The translations under genes were made by a program, and so were the position numbers. Below are positions 10,232 to 31,638 of a DNA stretch of 64,000 nt, one piece after another. The DNA comes from Nanobdellota archaeon (GTDB lineage Archaea > Nanobdellota > Nanobdellia > Parvarchaeales > Parvarchaeaceae). Position 1 is the stretch's first letter; each line of letters starts with the position of its first letter. The notes below the pieces were generated by a model. The model was not told the origin of the DNA. It made no database searches and saw only the letters and a list, made by a program, of their open reading frames with translations. The stretch lies in contig JAJYZA010000002.1 in assembly GCA_021800365.1 (NCBI GenBank), forward strand, positions 33,187 to 97,186. The letters are read 5' to 3'.

Positions 10232-10762
10232 ATGGACAAAAAAGGACAGGTTTTTACAATAGATTTACTGATCGCAATATTTATTTTTACGCTTATATTT
10301 ACTTCCGTAGTGGTTTTTCTTTTCTCAATAGGCGCGATATCCAGTCAGTACTCCTCTTATTACGCACAGACAATATCCGTCTCGCTAAATAGCATTGCTT
10401 CTTCCGCGATCAATACGCTTGTTGGTTCTCAGGGTACTCCAATAAATTGGTCATCGGCACCGTGCAGCTCCATAAAAACGGTAGGGATTATGTATAATTA
10501 TTACGAAGCGAGTCCACAGAAACTGTACAATCTAACGACTCTCCCCGTTGCATGCTTGTCGCAGCTTCTGCGAGCAGGAGATTCATTTAATATAACTACA
10601 AGTTATCTAAATGGAACCCCATTAAAGGTAAATGGGGCAGTGATAACCGCCGGTTTTTTTATACCGCAAAACCCGGCTTACATTACCTCAGTACAAAGAT
10701 TTGTCGTATTATACCCCGGTAAAGATATAATACGCATGAGCTTTTCAGAGTGGTTACAATGA
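10232..10762 (+). CDS. Archaeal type IV pilin-like protein with a class III signal peptide.
   Basis: The N terminus MDKKGQVFTIDLLIAIFIFTLIF has a KG/Q prepilin peptidase site followed by a hydrophobic helix. The mature part has many NxS/T sequons. Confidence 0.55.
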   Translation: MDKKGQVFTIDLLIAIFIFTLIFTSVVVFLFSIGAISSQYSSYYAQTISVSLNSIASSAINTLVGSQGTPINWSSAPCSSIKTVGIMYNYYEASPQKLYNLTTLPVACLSQLLRAGDSFNITTSYLNGTPLKVNGAVITAGFFIPQNPAYITSVQRFVVLYPGKDIIRMSFSEWLQ

Positions 10763-11514
10763 AAGGACAGGTATTTACTATAGATCTAGTGTTAGGCGCG
10801 GTAATAATATTGTCAATTATTGGAAGCGCGTACTCTTTATCGGCTTATTACTCCTCCTTGAGCCAGATAACTATAAGTAATGGAAATCTAGTTAGTGAAG
10901 TTTCTTCAGCCATAACGGCTTTTGTAACGGCTAATTCAACTAGGGATAGCATAGAATATTTTCAAAGCTCGAGCGGCGCGACAGCGTTCTTTACTAGTTT
11001 TACAAACAATATCACACAGAGCCTTGGGCAGGAACTTAACTTCCCTTATTCAATTTCAATATATACGATTGGGAACTATACAAATGGAGAATTAGTGCCA
11101 AACTTACTGCTTTTTAGTTACGAAACACCTGCTTTTGTTAGCGGGGCGCCCTCTATTTCTTTTTATGAGCCGATTGTCGTAACGCAGCAGACTTCTGCAT
11201 GCCGCAATACCTGCAATTTCTCATTACAAGCAGGTAGCATTTTTATCGGCGAGAACGCGACGCTAAACGCAGCAAAATGTAATATATACTCACTTACAGG
11301 GGCCAAGCTAGTAGTCGGTAGCTGGCACGTTTTTAATAACACGCCGACTGGTTATTGTACGCTCGAGGCGCCAAAATATCCTAGCGTTGGAGGTACACCA
11401 AAGAGCTATCTTGTCAAAGCCTATAATCTCGGAGGAACATTTATAGGCAACACGACTTTACACACTATGGGATTAGATTTAATACAGATAGAGGTACAAG
11501 CCTATGGCTCGTAA
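10750..11514 (+). CDS. Archaeal type IV pilin-like protein with a class III signal peptide. It is a paralog of the preceding gene.
   Basis: The N terminus MVTMKGQVFTIDLVLGAVIIL repeats the same KGQVFTIDL motif, and the DNA is also conserved. It overlaps the upstream gene by 13 nt. Confidence 0.55.
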   Translation: MVTMKGQVFTIDLVLGAVIILSIIGSAYSLSAYYSSLSQITISNGNLVSEVSSAITAFVTANSTRDSIEYFQSSSGATAFFTSFTNNITQSLGQELNFPYSISIYTIGNYTNGELVPNLLLFSYETPAFVSGAPSISFYEPIVVTQQTSACRNTCNFSLQAGSIFIGENATLNAAKCNIYSLTGAKLVVGSWHVFNNTPTGYCTLEAPKYPSVGGTPKSYLVKAYNLGGTFIGNTTLHTMGLDLIQIEVQAYGS

Positions 11515-13850: not shown

Positions 13851-15536
13851 ATGACGGAATATCAGTTGGGAAGAAAATTTAACGATGCTTTTAAGCAGAC
13901 AGCTTTAGGTGTCTCAATTGGAGAACAGAATCAACTAGCCGAATTTGCAAAAGTGCTTAGAAGCGGTGCCCAGATGGCTGAGATAGATCTAGCTAGTCTT
14001 TATGGTTTTACAGGAAACGGGACTCCAGCCACAAGAATGGGTAAAACAGAAAGGGAAGCCTTCGGGAACCTTGCAAAGACAAATCAGGCAGATTTAAGCA
14101 TACACGCACCGTGGTCTATAAATCCCTCTGGGATAAATCCGCAGTCCGGTGAACGGGACATGGAATATATGGCGCTTATGAAGAACGAGATGAAGGCGGC
14201 TATAAATTTTGCAGATGACGTTAGCAAGAGCATGGGAAAGCACAACATGCCAATAATATTTCATGCGGCTTCGGATCATTTCGGAAACCCGGATCCAAAA
14301 TTAAGATTAATTGCATATGACAATGAAGCGGATAAGATATTTCCAATAAAAGAACAGAAATTAGACAATATGACCGCAGAAAAATTCAGGCAATTATATG
14401 GAGATGATACTTATAATCGTGTAAAGATTGGGTTAAAACCGTCGGAAGACGGCAAAGGCATAATTCTAACGCCGGAAGCTGCGTTCCAGTTTCAAAAAGA
14501 TCAGCTTAGGATAAATATGAACCAAGAGAGAGTAAACCTGGAAATAAATCAAAGAGAGCTCGAAATGCAGAAATTTAGGTTAGTCAATGAACTTGCCGAA
14601 GCATCTGCGGGAGGGGACTTGGCACGTATAGATAAATTAAATAAGACCAAAGACGCATATGACCAGATGTTAAAGGACTTAAATGTTAGGAAAGACAGGA
14701 TTGATAACGGGATAGAACACATAAATGAGCGACTTGTAAGATATGATGAAAAGGCACCATTGTTAGCGGCAGAAGGAATAAAAGATGCTGCACTAATGTC
14801 CGCAAGATCTACGACAAAGCCGATGATATTGGTAGAGAATACGATGACGCCAGAAATGTCGCTTAGTAAGCCAGTGGATGTAGCGAAGGCAGTAGAACAA
14901 GCAAGGCGTCTTTTTGTTGATGCCGCGACGAAAGACGAGAAATTGAACTTATCCAAATCCGATGCTGAAGACTTGGCGAATCAACTTATAGGGGTAAATC
15001 TCGACGTTGGACATCTTAATATATTCAAGTCTTATGGGTTGGACAATAGAAAGATAGTTTCAATGCTAACGGAGCAAGGAAAGCTAGATGATAAGACGCG
15101 TGTAAGGCTTGCGGATTACATAAAAAGATATCATCTTAATGACAATATGGGAGATATAGACGCGCACTTGCCACTAGGTGAGGGCACCACTCCAATAAAA
15201 GAAATTTACGAGACACTAAGAAATGCCGGAGTTGAGGCTCCCGCAATAATGGAAGTCTTTGGTGGGCAAGGCGGCATAGAGGCGGGTATGACTCAGTCAC
15301 TAGAATACCTCGGAGCGCCGATATACGGCGATGTGCCATTTACGAGCCTTCCGACTTACGCCGCAAATCCATATTCGTCTATAATAGGCGATTACTCTCA
15401 TTATTCAAATCTCGGATTAAGACAGGACCTGTTTAGCTATGGTGGCTTCACAGGCTTGTCTCCGATATTGGGGGGTGGTTACATGGAGAACACGCGCGGA
15501 GGCGGAGGGGGCTTTTCTGGCGCACCCATGGCTTAA
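13851..15536 (+). CDS. Endonuclease IV (Nfo)-like xylose-isomerase-fold TIM-barrel protein. It has a large internal coiled-coil insertion and a Gly-rich C-terminal tail.
   Basis: Nfo-like metal-site motifs appear in order: SIHAPWSINPSG, IIFHAASDH, LVENTM, NLDVGHLN, and YHLNDNMGDIDAHLPLGEG. A roughly 250-aa charged, heptad-like insert sits between the second and fourth motifs. The protein ends GGGYMENTRGGGGGFSGAPMA. Confidence 0.45.
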   Translation: MTEYQLGRKFNDAFKQTALGVSIGEQNQLAEFAKVLRSGAQMAEIDLASLYGFTGNGTPATRMGKTEREAFGNLAKTNQADLSIHAPWSINPSGINPQSGERDMEYMALMKNEMKAAINFADDVSKSMGKHNMPIIFHAASDHFGNPDPKLRLIAYDNEADKIFPIKEQKLDNMTAEKFRQLYGDDTYNRVKIGLKPSEDGKGIILTPEAAFQFQKDQLRINMNQERVNLEINQRELEMQKFRLVNELAEASAGGDLARIDKLNKTKDAYDQMLKDLNVRKDRIDNGIEHINERLVRYDEKAPLLAAEGIKDAALMSARSTTKPMILVENTMTPEMSLSKPVDVAKAVEQARRLFVDAATKDEKLNLSKSDAEDLANQLIGVNLDVGHLNIFKSYGLDNRKIVSMLTEQGKLDDKTRVRLADYIKRYHLNDNMGDIDAHLPLGEGTTPIKEIYETLRNAGVEAPAIMEVFGGQGGIEAGMTQSLEYLGAPIYGDVPFTSLPTYAANPYSSIIGDYSHYSNLGLRQDLFSYGGFTGLSPILGGGYMENTRGGGGGFSGAPMA

Positions 15537-15538
15537 AT

Positions 15539-16324
15539 ATGGATGAAAATAAAGAAGAAGGAAAACTTATTTTGAGGGGCTACGATGCGGCATTTAAGTT
15601 TGCTAAAGGAATATTTTCTGCGTATCCAAAAATAATAAAGACCATAGCACTTTTTGGTTCTTTTAGCAAAGGAAAAGAGACAGAGAACAGTGACGTTGAT
15701 ATTATGATAATAATGGATGATGTGCTGAACAATCTCGACAATACTATTTTAGGGCCATTTTATGGCACAGTGGACTCTCTTTTAAAAGAAGAGAAATCAA
15801 TAAAGCTGCATATAAACTTCGTTACTCTTACGGCTTTCTGGAGGGGGGTGTTATCAGCAGATCCTCTATCTATCAATGTTCTAAAGTATGGCGTACCTCT
15901 TATAGATACTGGTTACTTTGAACCGCTACGCGTGCTTCTTCTAAAAGGAGAGATAAAACCTACGGAGGAATCAATTTATGCCGCAATGTCAAGAAGCCAG
16001 TTATACTCAGATTCAGCCAGATTACGGATGGCGGGTGCAATTACTGACTTGTATTGGTCCGTAATAAATTCGGCGCAGGCGGCAATAATGAGACATGGAG
16101 AAGTGCCTCCCTCCCCAGAAACGGTAGGAGGGATGTTAGAGGATCTACAACGTATGCATCTTATAAATAACGAGGAGTTGCTTACGTTTAATGATATATT
16201 TGTACTCGGTAAAAAACTTCTTCATGGCGAAAAGATAGAAGTGAGTGGAACGGATTTCGATAAATTTCTAGTAAGAGCTATGCATTTCAATGAGAAGATG
16301 GCAAAATTACTGGAAAATAAATAA
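15539..16324 (+). CDS. Pol-beta-superfamily nucleotidyltransferase (MNT/KNTase-like) with a C-terminal helical domain.
   Basis: LFGSFSKGKETENSDVDIMII matches the GS...DxD NTase motif. A roughly 150-aa helical C-terminal domain follows. Its start lies 3 nt after the upstream stop. Confidence 0.55.
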   Translation: MDENKEEGKLILRGYDAAFKFAKGIFSAYPKIIKTIALFGSFSKGKETENSDVDIMIIMDDVLNNLDNTILGPFYGTVDSLLKEEKSIKLHINFVTLTAFWRGVLSADPLSINVLKYGVPLIDTGYFEPLRVLLLKGEIKPTEESIYAAMSRSQLYSDSARLRMAGAITDLYWSVINSAQAAIMRHGEVPPSPETVGGMLEDLQRMHLINNEELLTFNDIFVLGKKLLHGEKIEVSGTDFDKFLVRAMHFNEKMAKLLENK

Positions 16325-17132: not shown

Positions 17133-17297
17133 ATCTTATAATAATTTCTTACACTTTAAATAGATTATATCGATATCTTAAGAAAATGGATTCACAACCT
17201 TTAGGTCTTTACTGTAAAAGAAGCATTAGCATAAAATGCAGGCTTAAAATCGATGGCAAATCGAAACTTTTAAATACTGAAAGTTTGTTATACTTGT

Positions 17298-17654
17298 ATG
17301 GATTTAAACAGAAAGGCACAAGGCCTTCCTATTAATACTATAATTCTTATAGCCATTGGACTTTTGATCTTAGTACTTTTCATAACCTTCGTTTTAGGCG
17401 GTTTTAAGGGCATTGGTGGCGGTACAAATCCGACAACTCAGGCAATGTCTTCTTTCGGCGCCCAATGTACAACTTACTGCTCAGAAGCGACTCCCGGTCA
17501 AATTCCTTACCAGTTCTGCGGTGCAACGACTAGTATAAATGGCGTCCTTTATACCTGTTTAAATCAAACTGCAGCGCAACAGACGTGCACTGTTCCATCA
17601 GCTTCTGGCGGCAGTTCAATAACTTATAACACCACGCTTTGTTCTAAAGCTTAA
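17298..17654 (+). CDS. Small secreted Cys-rich protein with a pilin-like class III-type signal peptide.
   Basis: The N terminus is MDLNRKAQGLPINTIILIAIGLLILVLFITF. The C-terminal half has 7 Cys and NxT sequons. Confidence 0.35.
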   Translation: MDLNRKAQGLPINTIILIAIGLLILVLFITFVLGGFKGIGGGTNPTTQAMSSFGAQCTTYCSEATPGQIPYQFCGATTSINGVLYTCLNQTAAQQTCTVPSASGGSSITYNTTLCSKA

Positions 17655-17726: not shown

Positions 17727-18350
17727 ATGGCTAAGACAAACACTTTCATGCTGGTTTTTAGCGTAATACTCTTAGTTCTGATAGCCATAGGCGTTTTCTA
17801 TGTTTTTGGAACGCACCTCGTTGCAATAAATACATGCGGCGGGAACAAAACGCTAGTGGTATTCAATAACAAAGAGTCTTGCTTTCCAAGTCTTTCCAAT
17901 ACAATAATTGCCAATGGCACGCCATATACGCTAAATTCATCACTGGCGGTGTCAAATGGCAGGATAATACCTCTAGATATAAGATTTATCGGAAACAATC
18001 CACTACTATATATATGGAACCAAAACAAGTCCTATAATGCAAGTTCTTACGTGTTCCTCACTATCCCGGATACGTTTAAAGTACACATGCAATACGCTTC
18101 TAATGTAACTACCGAATATATAATAATGACAAATGAACAATACATAAATTGGTATAATTCAAATGAGCGCAGCACTTCAAACGTGTATTCGCAAAGTGGT
18201 ACGGCAATCTCTGCGTGGTTTAATGAGAGTGCCGGTTGCGCAGGTTATGTAGCAGTAATAAAATCGGTTTCCGGGAGAGCATTCTTTATTAGGCCGAATG
18301 AGACTGCACTGTATGCTCCCGCTAATACCTCAACTGGTATATGTACTTAA
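17727..18350 (+). CDS. Secreted or membrane-anchored glycoprotein-like hypothetical protein.
   Basis: It has an N-terminal TM/signal anchor and many NxS/T sequons in the extracellular part. Confidence 0.35.
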   Translation: MAKTNTFMLVFSVILLVLIAIGVFYVFGTHLVAINTCGGNKTLVVFNNKESCFPSLSNTIIANGTPYTLNSSLAVSNGRIIPLDIRFIGNNPLLYIWNQNKSYNASSYVFLTIPDTFKVHMQYASNVTTEYIIMTNEQYINWYNSNERSTSNVYSQSGTAISAWFNESAGCAGYVAVIKSVSGRAFFIRPNETALYAPANTSTGICT

Positions 18351-18399
18351 CTCAATTCTAAAGCGTCAGTTTTAAATCCTTTAATCGCTATTAATTGAT

Positions 18400-19017
18400 A
18401 TGGAAATGGACGTTTTTGATGCAATAAATGAATTAAAGAAATTCTATGACGGCAACGGTACACTGGCTGGCCTTAAGGGCATGATTTCTGCAAAAAAATT
18501 GAATATTGATTTAGAATATCTCGATGGTGCCGTTAGACTAAGAGTATTACATCCACTTCGGCTTTACGTTGATGAGATATACAAAATTCTCCTTAGACTC
18601 TGGATAATAAATTCTATAGAAATTACCGTAGAATTTATGACAAACGGGAAGAAGAAAAGTGTCACTAAGAAGTTTGGCGCGGAAGAAAATGTAAAAGAAA
18701 CTATAGATGATCTACTCGAACTTCCGCACGAACAATTATTGGATATTATATTAGAGACAGAATATTTTAAACTTGTAGAAGTAAGAGACCTAAGTGATAC
18801 GGTCTCTATAATAATAAAAAAAGGTGATCAAAAATTACTTTTTAGGAGCCTCTATAACTATCTGTTCCCGTTTGTTAATGTACCAATCGACAAATCTGCA
18901 AAGGAAGAAATTATTTTCAACCAGGCTGGTGATGAATTAGCCGTAGACGTTTCCATATATGCAGATGGCTCGTCTGCTGGCGTTAAATCTAAAAAAGTAA
19001 AGATACTTAAAGTATGA
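18400..19017 (+). CDS. Hypothetical protein. It is the first gene of the KaiC-like/GTPase/Roadblock operon.
   Basis: It is 205 aa. Its stop overlaps the next start (ATGA), which indicates translational coupling. Confidence 0.4.
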   Translation: MEMDVFDAINELKKFYDGNGTLAGLKGMISAKKLNIDLEYLDGAVRLRVLHPLRLYVDEIYKILLRLWIINSIEITVEFMTNGKKKSVTKKFGAEENVKETIDDLLELPHEQLLDIILETEYFKLVEVRDLSDTVSIIIKKGDQKLLFRSLYNYLFPFVNVPIDKSAKEEIIFNQAGDELAVDVSIYADGSSAGVKSKKVKILKV

Positions 19018-19682
19018 GCGGAATAATGACAGGTTTTCCTTCTTTTGATAATTTAGTGTCCGGATTGGAGCCGAGAAAAACTTATCTTTTGAGCGGAAAT
19101 AAAGACAGTGGCAAGGAAGATTTCGTTTACAAGCTAACTGCATCCGCATTGAACAGAGAGATTGTCGTCGTGTACGTGACAACAAATAGGTCAAATACCG
19201 ATTTGATCATGGACTTTTCTTCTAAAGGATTAAAGTTATCACAGTATTTGGGCACTAGCATGTTAATACTTGATGATTTTATAAGAAGCGTATCCCCACA
19301 GGCAACAGATAACACGTATACAAAGGTGTTAAATGGCCCTTTAGACCTTACCGGTTTATCCGTCGCATTATCAAATGTCAACAATGGTTTTCTTAAGGAT
19401 GGAAAGACAGTACTTAATGTATTTGATTCGATATCTGCGCTCCTTCTCTATAACAATACAGTGACAATGTTTCGCTTTCTACAATTTGTATGTGGCAGAG
19501 CAAAGATATCGGGAGTAACGACGCTATTGATGCTAGATGATGAGATGCATACGCCGCAGGTCAACGAAACCATAAAATCTCTTGCGGATTCAGTAATTAC
19601 TTTAAAACTAGATGAAGGTAAAAGGTATTTTATGGTATCTGGCGGTGCAAAAGAAGTACTAAGCTGGACATCATTGCAGTGA
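19014..19682 (+). CDS. KaiC/RecA-superfamily (FlaH-like) domain protein with a degenerate Walker A.
   Basis: TGFPSFDNLVSGLEPRKTYLLSGNKDSGKEDFVYKL aligns to the KaiC TG.PGLD..LGGGLP.G...LI.G.PG.GKT region. The motif here is GNKDSGKE, so the Ser/Thr is replaced. Confidence 0.45.
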   Translation: MSGIMTGFPSFDNLVSGLEPRKTYLLSGNKDSGKEDFVYKLTASALNREIVVVYVTTNRSNTDLIMDFSSKGLKLSQYLGTSMLILDDFIRSVSPQATDNTYTKVLNGPLDLTGLSVALSNVNNGFLKDGKTVLNVFDSISALLLYNNTVTMFRFLQFVCGRAKISGVTTLLMLDDEMHTPQVNETIKSLADSVITLKLDEGKRYFMVSGGAKEVLSWTSLQ

Positions 19683-19694
19683 GCTTAAGGCGAT

Positions 19695-20912
19695 ATGGAA
19701 AAAAATAGTATAAAAAATGATCCGGTATTTGGCATAGGCAAATTAGATGAGGATTTAGAAGGCTTCCCTTATAATAAATTAGTGCTTCTGTCAGCTTCAC
19801 CCGCGGTAGGTAATGAGGTTTTTGGCTACCAAATAATCTTTAATAACCTGGCACATAAAAATAAGGTCCTTCTTTTTCTAAACAGAACTTCTCCTCAATC
19901 TTATATTACGGAGATGAAAGAGTATGATTTTAAGCCAGCTACAGATCTTGTTATAATAGACTCTTATAGCAGTGTTACGGGAATAAATGCGACTGAGACA
20001 CCGCTAAATAAGATGATAGCAAATCCCTACGATGGAACTGAAATAAAGAAAAAATTATTGGATGAACTAGACAAAAATTATGATGTTGTTGTACTAGATT
20101 CACTTTCTTTGCTTATAGATTCATTCGATTTTGATTATGTTCTATCATTGATAGGCGCGATAAAAGCGAAAATCTCAACGAAAAAATCCTCCGTCGTGAT
20201 GCTTTTCACGGATTGGGAATACGAGCAGGAGAACGTCAAGAAACTATTTACAGCAGTGAATGCACAGATAGATATAAAGGGTGTCGAAAAGAGAGTCATA
20301 TTTGGTCAATACTTCGCGGTCATAAAATGCGATTGGGTCAATAAAACTAGTTTTTCCTCAGCGTTGTTTAAGGCTATAAAACCTGGTGGGATAAAGATCT
20401 ATTTTCCAAAGATACTGATTACCGGGCCTACGGATGCAGGTAAAACTTCCTTTATACACAGTGCGTCGAAAGATGCCGTTAGCGTCGATAGGCTCGGGGG
20501 CACCATCGCACTCGATCATGGAAACCTCGATTTGGAAGGTTATAAGGCAGATTTATTCGGAACGCCCGGTCAAGAAAGATTTGACCCTCTATTGAAATTG
20601 CTTGGAGGAGAAGCCATCGGGGTAATACTAATTGTAGATTCTTCGCGGCCAGACCAATTTCCGAGGGCCATAGAGATGCTTAGAAAGACGGAAACCTACG
20701 GATTACCAATAGTAGTCGTTGCAAACAAAGCCGATCTTCCGAACGCATTACCTCTGGAAGAATTGAGAGAAAAGCTACATCTCGGCAAAGACGCACCACT
20801 AGTTGCCACTGTAGCGGAAGACCTATCCAAAATCGATCCAAATGAACCGACTAAGTTAAAAGAGAAGGGGGTGCGTGAGGCATTGATGGCTTTGTTTAAG
20901 CAATTGACATAA
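19695..20912 (+). CDS. Fusion of a degenerate KaiC/RecA-like domain (N-terminal) and an MglA/Ras-like small GTPase (C-terminal).
   Basis: The N-terminal half resembles KaiC (LVLLSASPAVGNEVFGYQI) but lacks a P-loop. The C-terminal half has G1 ILITGPTDAGKTS, a switch-I Thr in GGTIALD, a G3 of FGTPGQ, and a G4 of VANKADL. The G3 is of the TxPGQ type, as in MglA. Confidence 0.5.
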   Translation: MEKNSIKNDPVFGIGKLDEDLEGFPYNKLVLLSASPAVGNEVFGYQIIFNNLAHKNKVLLFLNRTSPQSYITEMKEYDFKPATDLVIIDSYSSVTGINATETPLNKMIANPYDGTEIKKKLLDELDKNYDVVVLDSLSLLIDSFDFDYVLSLIGAIKAKISTKKSSVVMLFTDWEYEQENVKKLFTAVNAQIDIKGVEKRVIFGQYFAVIKCDWVNKTSFSSALFKAIKPGGIKIYFPKILITGPTDAGKTSFIHSASKDAVSVDRLGGTIALDHGNLDLEGYKADLFGTPGQERFDPLLKLLGGEAIGVILIVDSSRPDQFPRAIEMLRKTETYGLPIVVVANKADLPNALPLEELREKLHLGKDAPLVATVAEDLSKIDPNEPTKLKEKGVREALMALFKQLT

Positions 20913-20944
20913 TGCTTAAATTAGGCAGGGGTTATAAATAGCTT

Positions 20945-21322
20945 ATGGCTACAAAATCAGATGCTTTGAGACTGGTGTTAGAAGGTTTGGGTAATGTAGG
21001 TGGCATACGCGCCTCCGCGATAATATCAGTGGACGGTCTTCCGATGGTATCCCTAATGCCACAGGATGTAGATCCCAACAACTTTGCTGCAATGCTAGCG
21101 TCAATGGTAGGTGCGGCTGAAACTGCGCTGAAATCTCTTGGCTCCAAAAATATCTTAGATCGAGTTGTAGCCGAATCAAAAGATGTGAGAGTAATTGCCG
21201 TAAAGGCCGGTGAAGATACTATACTTACCATTATGATAGACCCAAATACTAATTATGGCTTGGTGCTTCTCGAAGCGAAAAAAGCTTCTGATGAAATTGC
21301 AAAGATAATGAAAGGGCAATAA
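20945..21322 (+). CDS. Roadblock/LC7 (MglB-like) domain protein.
   Basis: It is 125 aa. It has the GIRASAIISVDGLPMVS and TIMIDPNTNYGLVLLEAK pattern typical of Roadblock/LC7 proteins. It lies directly downstream of the small GTPase gene. Confidence 0.5.
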   Translation: MATKSDALRLVLEGLGNVGGIRASAIISVDGLPMVSLMPQDVDPNNFAAMLASMVGAAETALKSLGSKNILDRVVAESKDVRVIAVKAGEDTILTIMIDPNTNYGLVLLEAKKASDEIAKIMKGQ

Positions 21323-30452: not shown

Positions 30453-30638
30453 CTATGCAGAACCAGGAATCGAAACATTGTGGTTTGTCAAATTTGTTAG
30501 TTGATTTACATTTCCGATTATGCCGCTTCGTATCAAGAATAGGATTACAATTAGCAATGCAAGCGCAATCACTATGAGAATAATAACCTCAAGTCCAAGA
30601 GAAATAGCGCCTTTCTTATTCCTTTTTAAACTTAGCAT
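30453..30638 (-). CDS. Small archaeal pilin-like protein (class III signal peptide).
   Basis: The start is taken at the internal Met, giving MLSLKRNKKGAISLGLEVIILIVIALALLIVILFLI. This has a KKG/A cleavage-type motif plus a hydrophobic helix. The track ORF begins 16 codons upstream. Confidence 0.4.
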   Translation of the reverse strand: MLSLKRNKKGAISLGLEVIILIVIALALLIVILFLIRSGIIGNVNQLTNLTNHNVSIPGSA

Positions 30639-30726
30639 ATTAAGTTCTGCTCTTTGCATAATTAATACTTTCTCTAAGGGTAACATCTATCTAAACGTTT
30701 AAATATTTCTGTGATGTAAAACCTAT

Positions 30727-31152: not shown

Positions 31153-31638
31153 TTAACAACTTGGACTCGCACTATTGAAGTAATATATCGCTCTTGTAGA
31201 TCCTGCGGGATTATAACCCGATCCGGAACGGGTGAGGTTTGAGCAATAATAAACGCTACTTTCGTTTATAACATACGCAGTGAAAGAGTAGTTTCCACTT
31301 GCGGTAGTAAAACTTATGGAAGTATTAATCCATGCAGATAGGTTTTGGCCGTTGTAATCAATGTACCAATAGTAAGGCGCAGATTGAAAAGTCGAACAAC
31401 TTGTCGAACTTACACAGTTATACGCCGTGAAGGTAGTTTTTACCGTTCCAAAATTCCCACTGCCACTGCCCCCAGATGAAATACCGAGTATCCGAGAGAA
31501 ATAATTTAGCCCGCCAACTAGGTAACTATCAATTGCGCCAGCAAAAACTACGAATATGACAAACGCGATAACTAACACCATAATCACTAGCAATCCAAGA
31601 CTTACTGCGCCGCGCTTCGATAATCTAAGTACAACCAT
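31153..31638 (-). CDS. Archaeal pilin-like protein (class III signal peptide).
   Basis: The N terminus MVVLRLSKRGAVSLGLLVIMVLVIAFVIFVVFAG shares the [KR]GA[VI]SLGL motif with the 30453 gene. The mature region is Ser/Thr/Asn-rich. Confidence 0.45.
   Translation of the reverse strand: MVVLRLSKRGAVSLGLLVIMVLVIAFVIFVVFAGAIDSYLVGGLNYFSRILGISSGGSGSGNFGTVKTTFTAYNCVSSTSCSTFQSAPYYWYIDYNGQNLSAWINTSISFTTASGNYSFTAYVINESSVYYCSNLTRSGSGYNPAGSTRAIYYFNSASPSC

Follow-up and report, generated by a model that had tools for sequence, protein, structure and literature searches.

What does a Ras-like GTPase do when it is joined to a KaiC-like domain, and which process does the resulting protein serve? The question is raised by an operon of four co-oriented genes, g1 to g4, at positions 18400-21322 of a 64-kb stretch of a Nanobdellota archaeon contig (JAJYZA010000002.1, positions 33,187 to 97,186), here called the window. 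The g2 product (K) is a KaiC-like protein, the g3 product (F) is the fusion and the g4 product (R) belongs to the Roadblock/LC7 proteins; positions of all features are listed in Table 1. An earlier note, made from the sequence alone, had taken the fusion for an undescribed architecture and the operon for a candidate switch of archaeal type IV pili or the archaellum. We found that the operon is an ordinary member of a widespread archaeal K-F-R family and not a local oddity. On balance, the K-F-R module is probably a Roadblock-regulated GTP switch that is hard-wired to a pseudo-ATPase KaiC-like scaffold, a composite mechanism that we hold with moderate confidence.

A word-indexed search returned 641 relatives of g3. 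The best 120 were inspected and, bar a few partial entries, are approximately 380-430 aa long and cover at least 90% of g3. They are annotated at source as 'GTP-binding protein' or 'ATPase domain-containing protein' and nothing more specific. When one genome per GTDB species was scanned, at least 569 relatives were found, and nearly all of the best 80, which were inspected, cover both domains of F. Among these 80 matches, full-length F is present in Parvarchaeota, Nano/Woesearchaeota and Altiarchaeota, in ANME-2, Methanoperedens, other Methanosarcinales, Archaeoglobaceae, Methanocellales, Halobacteriota and Methanobacterium, and in Hydrothermarchaeales, Hecatellales, Thermoplasmata, Bathyarchaeia, Nitrososphaerota and Thermoproteota. 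The full-length fusions, from approximately 15 named archaeal groups, are 25-78% identical to g3, and the highest identities (64-78%) are to metagenome-assembled genomes (MAGs) named Parvarchaeota, by which the window is judged to come from a Parvarchaeota (ARMAN-related) archaeon. When 1.84 billion cluster representatives were searched exhaustively with HMMER, 98 clusters matched F at E <=1e-30, and approximately 100 representatives of 50%-identity clusters align over both domains, down to 25-30% identity. The survey across archaeal genomes that the earlier note had proposed has thus shown the fusion to be widespread, and with the full-length form in at least 80 species genomes and approximately 100 such clusters, it can no longer be seen as peculiar to this locus.

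The genes next to the fusion are conserved as well. Open reading frames (ORFs) were called in 88 related loci and in the window, and hidden Markov models (HMMs) were made from g1, g2, g3, g4 and pilus genes. Neighbours on the same strand and within 1.5 kb were counted at the 82 loci with a full-length F. Both K (~220-250 aa) and R (~122 aa) were found near F at 60 loci, R only at 15, K only at two and neither at five, three of which are at contig ends. R is therefore close to F in 75/82 loci. The trio has been retained amid unrelated flanking genes and, in Thermoplasmata, in the permuted order R-V4R-F-K, which speaks for a functional link and against inherited gene order. In a metagenomic protein of 527 aa (P0183), a single chain combines KaiC-like, small GTPase and Roadblock/LC7 domains, and this triple fusion is Rosetta-stone evidence for R acting on F.

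The C-terminal domain of F matches TIGR00231 in NCBIfam (4e-14) and Arf in Pfam (4e-11), and its best sequence matches in the PDB are Arf and Arl. The four GTPase motifs, G1 to G4, are nearly invariant in 60 F homologues, where they read GPxxAGK[ST], LG[TG]T, GTPGQERFDP and ANKx[DN]. G2 is GGT in the window and GTT in most homologues, and no Arg is found beside the G2 Thr. As the domain has kept the catalytic Gln and has no intrinsic Arg finger, it should require a partner. The nearest relatives that are not fused are stand-alone GTPases of approximately 170 aa with the same motifs. Within the F family, G4 is NKQD in 53 proteins, NKAD in 16, that of the window among them, NKAN in six and NKSN in one. 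The few homologues with Asn for the guanine-specifying Asp of G4 (e.g. P0008 and P0011, named Parvarchaeota) might, on this substitution, have an altered base specificity.

That this domain is a Ras-superfamily GTPase with an MglA-like G3 and an NKAD G4, as the earlier note had proposed, is borne out by these matches and motifs. The MglA family has been defined by G1 GxxxxGK[ST], a G2 Thr, G3 xxxGQ, G4 [NT]KxD and an MglB/Roadblock gene within four genes (Wuichet & Sogaard-Andersen 2014, PMC4316618). F has all of these motifs and g4 begins 32 nt 3' of g3, but MglA is a single-domain protein of approximately 160-200 aa and F, at 405 aa, has an additional N-terminal KaiC-like domain. Group 1 MglA proteins have TVPGQ and an Arg beside the G2 Thr, while GTPGQ without this Arg is the shared signature of groups 2-5, and archaeal members lack the G1-G2 insertion of the bacterial proteins (PMC4316618). 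The F GTPase is 30% identical to Myxococcus xanthus MglA, with gaps exactly at the bacterial G1-G2 insertion, in a comparison that is approximate. Given its GTPGQ, a G2 Thr without a neighbouring Arg and, as in the archaeal group, the lack of a G1-G2 insertion, the domain is assigned by its motifs to the MglA group 2-5 type of the Ras superfamily, and not to group 1, from which the lack of TVPGQ and of an intrinsic Arg finger sets it apart.

The identification of the g4 product as a Roadblock/LC7 protein, also made in the earlier note, holds. It matches Robl_LC7 (PF03259) with an E value of 1e-13 and 51.2 bits, against a cut-off of 23 bits, and its best match in the PDB is the Roadblock chain 9jue_D (6.7e-13), with M. 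xanthus MglB also matched (3e-6). No chain of 9JUE is among the PDB matches listed for the F GTPase. R has the D-G pair of the MglB partners of groups 2-5, here D30-G31, and is predicted to be a partner of the F GTPase of the GTPase-activating protein (GAP) or guanine nucleotide exchange factor (GEF) type. The arrangement of a Ras-superfamily GTPase gene next to a Roadblock/LC7 gene is that of MglA-MglB in M. xanthus and Thermus thermophilus. However, R is far under the cut-off of the MglB equivalog NF052242 (22.9 vs 200 bits), the F GTPase is fused to a dead KaiC-like domain, and the module includes a second KaiC-like gene.

As a single sequence, the N-terminal domain of F is a marginal match to KaiC (PF06745; aa 13-237, 26.7 bits, threshold 26.6). 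A profile of 60 F homologues matched PH0284 in the PDB at 2.7e-25, and also PH0186, KaiC and SSO2452. In the AlphaFold2 (AF2) model of g3 (pLDDT 90, pTM 0.85), the N-terminal domain is closest by Foldseek to PH0284 (TM-score 0.82), SSO2452 (0.79) and FlaH (4yds, 0.75). Pfam matched each type of domain named in the earlier note, KaiC (PF06745), Roadblock (PF03259) and, through Arf, the small GTPase. The same note had described this half of F as KaiC-like without a P-loop, and we agree. The P-loop site is occupied by SPAVGNEVF, which has no Lys, and all 60 aligned F proteins have P-[GA]-V-[EG]-x-x-x-F-x-x-Q there, with Lys in none. FLNRTS stands where the catalytic Glu pair would be, the window F retains the Walker B Asp, and FTxWxY is a motif specific to the family.

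A regular expression for the P-loop, GxxxxGK[ST], matches the N-terminal domain of 38/82 F homologues (e.g. GGIPKGKS). We rejected this as a hidden P-loop: it is the KaiC N-terminal GGxPxGxS motif (GGLPIGRS in KaiC) and is found 5' of the P-loop site.

K has a more secure match to KaiC (PF06745; E 8e-14, 52 bits) and also matches DUF7504 (41 bits, Pfam scan); its best match in the PDB is SSO2452, a KaiC/RadA-like protein of Sulfolobus. Its Walker A motif, GNKDSGKE (aa 28-35), is not the canonical GxxxxGK[ST]. The earlier note had called K KaiC-like, which stands, and its Walker A crippled, which does not, as the deviation is a family signature. In an alignment of the 62 K homologues that are adjacent to F, the consensus is GPPMSGK[E/D] and nearly all have GxxxxGK[E/D], which retains the Gly and Lys of the P-loop and has an acidic residue in place of the Ser/Thr that follows. 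R154 is invariant (62/62). The catalytic Glu and Walker B positions of K and F were placed by alignment to KaiC and are approximate; at these positions, most K proteins have TRE, with one Glu, and an Asn for the Walker B Asp, and the window K has TNR (in TTNRS), without the Glu pair, and retains the Asp (VFDSIS).

According to 10.1101/2022.06.23.497301, the Ser/Thr next after this Lys is a strictly conserved, Mg-coordinating residue of P-loop NTPases. As this Mg ligand has been replaced in K, and the Walker B and Glu motifs carry Asn or lack Glu, K is unlikely to be a conventional ATPase, though it may bind nucleotide. Since GK[E/D], R154 and FTxWxY are family-wide or nearly so, the deviant motifs of K and F are best read as conserved family signatures under selection, not as decay. 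Loss of the canonical catalytic motifs is what would be expected if the degenerate KaiC-like genes were functionless, decaying remnants, but the reading frames are intact, identities of 25-78% are maintained across archaeal phyla, there are many invariant positions outside the catalytic sites as well as motifs specific to the family, and AF2 gave models of high confidence. We regard this explanation as already refuted by the conservation data and its probability as negligible.

Alternatively, K, by itself or in a hetero-oligomer with F, could have remained an active ATPase or autokinase and could form a KaiC-type phosphorylation timer or sensor with the fused GTPase as its output, in place of a pseudo-ATPase scaffold. 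The P-loop Gly and Lys, the Walker B Asp of the window K, the one Glu at a catalytic position in most K proteins and the invariant Arg, which could act in trans, would all be compatible with this, and Mg2+ might in principle still be bound through the acidic residue that follows the Lys. However, the Mg-coordinating Ser/Thr has been replaced in nearly all K proteins, most have Asn for the Walker B Asp, both catalytic Glu have been lost from the window K and the N-terminal domain of F is entirely without a P-loop. An active enzyme therefore seems distinctly improbable.

The Roadblock-regulated GTP switch that we favour can be set out in four steps. R, as a Roadblock dimer like MglB, would set the GTP/GDP state of F by serving as a GAP and/or as an exchange platform, a step suggested by homology, near-universal adjacency and the fusion of F with R. 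The nucleotide state would then be relayed to the dead KaiC-like domain through a rigid junction, since the two domains share a single unbroken strand (aa 232-243) in the AF2 model, which leaves the KaiC-like sheet and becomes GTPase strand 1 without an intervening linker. The dead domain and K may assemble into a RecA-like hetero-oligomeric platform, as adjacency and motif conservation suggest, in which K would probably bind nucleotide at most and not hydrolyse it. Finally, the platform would bind or release effectors, as KaiC and ArlH/FlaH do, with an output that would vary across archaea; in this genome, a pilus-related target is possible.

Assembly of K with F and the identity of the effector are the weakest points of this composite, and three observations weigh against it. 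First, F has no K beside it at the loci of Altiarchaeota, Woesearchaeota and Nanoarchaeia, so that a neighbouring K is not indispensable to F and R. Second, K has kept the P-loop Gly-Lys and, in most lineages, the one Glu of TRE, and may thus still hydrolyse ATP. Third, the pTM of 0.85 backs a fixed arrangement of the two domains of F only indirectly.

The output proposed in the earlier note was more specific: the operon was seen as a dedicated regulator of a type IV pilus or archaellum in this organism, comparable to polarity control by MglA-MglB or to ArlH/FlaH on the ArlI ATPase. Directly 5' of the operon are a pilin-like gene and a gene for a membrane-anchored protein, which are conserved in Parvarchaeota. 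In two other DPANN lineages (loci L001/L021 and L004/L005), F ends a pilin-like gene cluster that includes a T2SSE ATPase, with TadC also present only in L004/L005. KaiC ATPases and Roadblock arCOG02603 have been reported in archaeal type IV pilus loci (Makarova et al. 2016, PMC4858521), which would fit a pilus role, as would the resemblance of the F N-terminal domain to FlaH. However, searches with T2SSE and TadC HMMs and Pfam scans of large ORFs detected no pilus ATPase or TadC in the window, which also has no archaellum gene. L009, a Rehaiarchaeum-like locus, keeps g1-K-F-R without pilin genes, and g1 and the pilin-like gene of the window each have a TATA-like box of their own. In most lineages the trio has housekeeping genes as neighbours, such as that for AIR synthase in Altiarchaeota and the YhbY-S19e-dsDNA_bind set in Methanoperedens/ANME, and pilus genes flank it in just three DPANN lineages.

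The adjacency in the window could plausibly have arisen by chance, as pilin-like ORFs are frequent there (~1 per 11 kb). The sole basis for calling the 118-aa neighbour pilin-like is its conserved N-terminus, NRKAQGLPINTIILIAIGLLILVL, in which RKA/QG is followed by a 20-residue hydrophobic stretch, like the KAQ/KGQ pilin N-termini of other loci. This N-terminus is conserved in Parvarchaeota only, and Pfam returned no family match for the protein. The statement that the module sits beside pilin-like genes is thus correct as far as the class-III-signal-like N-terminus goes, but is not backed by any family match. We conclude that the link of the module to a pilus or archaellum is weak and based on adjacency, and that a dedicated regulator of either is unlikely. 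What stands of the original idea is the GTPase/Roadblock switch, with GTPGQ, the frequent proximity of R to F and P0183 in its favour, and not the target that was assigned to it.

At least four further pilin-like genes (Table 1) are scattered through the window. Class-III-signal-like N-termini were found among these ORFs, e.g. MDKKGQVFTIDLLIAIFIF and MVTMKGQVFTIDLVLGAVII.

The module could also have a function other than signalling, namely a housekeeping one such as in translation or the biogenesis of ribosomes. In Methanoperedens, ANME-2 and related genomes, the trio is directly 5' of co-oriented genes for CRS1_YhbY, ribosomal protein S19e and dsDNA_bind (PDCD5-like), found at 28, 16 and 16 loci, respectively (L007, L020, L026, L027, L036 and L038 are among the 28). 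However, this synteny is confined to related Methanosarcinales-type lineages, where it may be inherited gene order, and other lineages have unrelated neighbours, among them sensors, V4R, pilus genes and metabolic genes. The GTPase is also of the Ras/MglA type and not of a translation-factor or ribosome-assembly class. Hence, we consider a housekeeping role very unlikely.

The sensor genes that flank the module in some lineages, in keeping with a signalling switch, encode HAMP, FIST and PAS/GAF proteins and extra Roadblock and KaiC proteins. In a Nanoarchaeota genome (L004/L005:8911-12745) and in a metagenomic genome (L006:8036-13218), repeated sets of a HAMP-domain protein, a small ORF and a Roadblock protein follow 3' of F, and the arrays also hold FIST, PAS/GAF and another DUF7504 KaiC-like gene. 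They are conservon-like sensor arrays centred on Roadblock proteins.

Actinobacterial conservons (CvnA-D) also unite, in one multi-gene operon, a GTPGQ-type small GTPase with a Roadblock protein and an ATPase-fold partner, and are thought to be a G-protein-like signalling system with the GTPase as output (PMC4316618, PMC13343842). In K-F-R, however, the place of CvnA, a membrane protein that resembles histidine kinases, is taken by KaiC/RecA-like pseudo-ATPase domains, one of them fused to the GTPase, and G4 is a canonical NKxD in F as opposed to NxFD. Pfam and NCBIfam detected neither a CvnA-type histidine-kinase-like sensor nor CvnC (DUF742) in g1-g4 or their neighbours. In the strict sense K-F-R belongs neither to the conservons nor to the MglA-MglB pairs, though it would work like them. 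The archaeal KaiC-like ATPases PH0284, SSO2452 and ArlH/FlaH share the single-domain KaiC/RecA fold and are the best structural matches, but both KaiC-like domains of the module are without the canonical catalytic motifs found in ArlH and KaiC. Fusion of inactivated KaiC (iKaiC) domains to signalling domains is a recognised archaeal theme (iKaiC as cited in PMC5847659); F departs from this theme in that its fusion partner is a Ras-type GTPase with a near-universal Roadblock partner.

In several archaeal lineages, a V4R protein (PF02830, ~170-200 aa) adjoins K-F-R, which puts small GTPase, Roadblock and V4R genes together in one operon. This was seen in Archaeoglobaceae, Halobacteriota MAGs, Thermoplasmata (in the permuted order given above) and Hecatellales, and the loci are L022:9498-10094, L024:9618-10184, L071:7454-7972, L074:3861-4379, L032, L034, L041, L048, L079, L023, L066 and L078. 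According to PMC10933270, V4R is structurally related to TRAPPC3/Bet3, and the Asgard archaeon MK-D1 does not in general have operons that combine small GTPase, Roadblock and V4R genes.

The pairing of a Roadblock-fold protein with an Arf/Rag-like GTPase recalls the eukaryotic Rag-Ragulator and TRAPP complexes (PMC3747258, PMC10933270), and the V4R gene that joins the K-F-R operon in several archaeal orders adds a TRAPPC3/Bet3-related component. However, K-F-R has no membrane-trafficking context and no longin domain, the V4R gene is absent from the window, and the eukaryotic Roadblock/Longin complexes have no counterpart of the KaiC-like scaffold. A more far-reaching reading would make K-F-R a distinct and ancient archaeal signalling core, in which a pseudo-KaiC (RecA-like) ring, hard-wired to the Ras-superfamily GTPase, would assemble or bind its partners under the control of the GTP state, and whose V4R variants, as GTPase, Roadblock and Bet3-like assemblies, prefigure the eukaryotic TRAPP/Ragulator platforms; we offer this only tentatively, as a possibility on the doubtful side.

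A full-text search of the accessible literature found neither a description of a KaiC-GTPase fusion nor experimental work on the module. There is a real chance that K-F-R has already been catalogued computationally, for instance as an arCOG. Small GTPase/Roadblock pairs and KaiC-like ATPases have each been proposed as major yet almost unstudied archaeal signalling devices, and K-F-R joins the two physically and has been kept in DPANN as well as in euryarchaeal lineages. It offers a testable system for an archaeal Ras-like switch, for the purpose of pseudo-KaiC domains and for the action of Roadblock proteins on GTPGQ GTPases that lack an Arg finger, and its V4R-containing variants bear on the prokaryotic roots of the eukaryotic Roadblock/Longin/Bet3 GTPase platforms. 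For the window itself the result is modest, an ordinary family member with one extra, Parvarchaeota-specific gene, g1.

No known family or fold could be assigned to g1, and only noise was returned when it and 20 homologues were compared with Pfam and NCBIfam. Homologues of g1 are confined to Parvarchaeota-like genomes and, among the labelled loci, it is beside the trio in ten, all from Parvarchaeota-like lineages. L009, a relative with 46% identity, carries g1-K-F-R though its other flanking genes differ. From this distribution, g1 is taken to be a lineage-specific accessory of the module and would act as a lineage-specific adaptor. It does not resemble a V4R, Roadblock or KaiB protein.

Conserved homologues exist for all four genes, which indicates that they are real genes and not chance ORFs. 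The earlier note had described their boundaries as overlapping or near-abutting, and they are: g1 and g2 share a 4-nt overlap (ATGA, in which the g2 ATG overlaps the g1 stop) if g2 starts at 19014, and the gaps between g2 and g3 and between g3 and g4 are 12 and 32 nt. The public gene call on the identical metagenomic contig starts g2 at the ATG at 19026, four codons later (218 aa), leaving an 8-nt gap in place of the overlap, and the two genes abut with either start. The note had also named what would speak against it, a C-terminal domain of g3 without GTPase motifs, a g4 product unlike Roadblock and N-terminal domains unrelated to KaiC; in all three cases the opposite was found. The separate TATA-like boxes 5' of g1 and of the 118-aa gene suggest that g1-g4 may form a transcription unit of their own, apart from the upstream pilin-like genes. 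A promoter and terminator scan with bacterial models gave counts at shuffle level and is uninformative for an archaeon. The operon was also considered as a defence system, and this was rejected, as a PADLOC scan gave no credible match for any of the four proteins.

Table 1. Features of the g1-g4 operon and of its surroundings (positions in the window)
Feature	Position	Strand	Description
g1	18400-19017	+	205 aa; soluble alpha/beta protein
g2 (K)	19014-19682	+	222 aa; single-domain KaiC/RecA-like protein, deviant P-loop
K Walker A	19095-19118	+	GNKDSGKE
K catalytic Glu pair position	19179-19193	+	TTNRS
K Walker B	19419-19436	+	VFDSIS
g3 (F)	19695-20912	+	405 aa; KaiC-like domain fused to small GTPase
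F N-terminal domain (aa 1-237)	19695-20405	+	KaiC-like, P-loop lost
F P-loop site	19797-19823	+	SPAVGNEVF
F family-specific motif	20205-20222	+	FTxWxY
F C-terminal domain (aa 238-405)	20406-20912	+	Ras-superfamily GTPase, assigned to MglA group 2-5 type
F G1	20424-20447	+	GPTDAGKT
F G2	20496-20510	+	GGT (T270)
F G3	20559-20573	+	GTPGQ
F G4	20724-20735	+	NKAD
g4 (R)	20945-21322	+	125 aa; Roadblock/LC7 protein
R D30-G31 (region)	21029-21043	+	D-G pair
Possible archaeal TATA box	18370-18377	+	TTTTAAAT; 23 nt 5' of g1 ATG; by eye from sequence
TATA-like box	17269-17276	+	TTTAAATA; 5' of 118-aa pilin-like gene
Pilin-like neighbour	17298-17654	+	118 aa; class-III-signal-like N-terminus RKA/QGLPINTIILIAIG
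Membrane-anchored neighbour	17727-18350	+	207 aa; N-terminal anchor, many N-x-S/T sites; Parvarchaeota-specific
Further pilin-like ORF	10232-10762	+	
Further pilin-like ORF	10750-11514	+	
Further pilin-like ORF	31153-31638	-	
Further pilin-like ORF	30453-30686	-	
AP_endonuc_2 gene	13851-15536	+	561 aa; C-terminal part matches xylose isomerase-like TIM barrel
NTP_transf_2 gene	15539-16324	+	nucleotidyltransferase, 5' of operon

On the 3' side of the operon, the window has an oppositely oriented 86-aa ORF and a malic enzyme gene. In ARMAN-4-like relatives, a gene for a low-molecular-weight phosphotyrosine phosphatase is directly 3' of the Roadblock gene (L011:9614-10024; L013, L014 and L015); this gene is absent from the matching position in the window. 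On the 5' side, other Parvarchaeota (L008, L011 and L013-L015) have the AP_endonuc_2 and NTP_transf_2 pair at the same place with respect to the operon, in a conserved synteny that includes VIT1 and DUF211 genes annotated in the relative L008.

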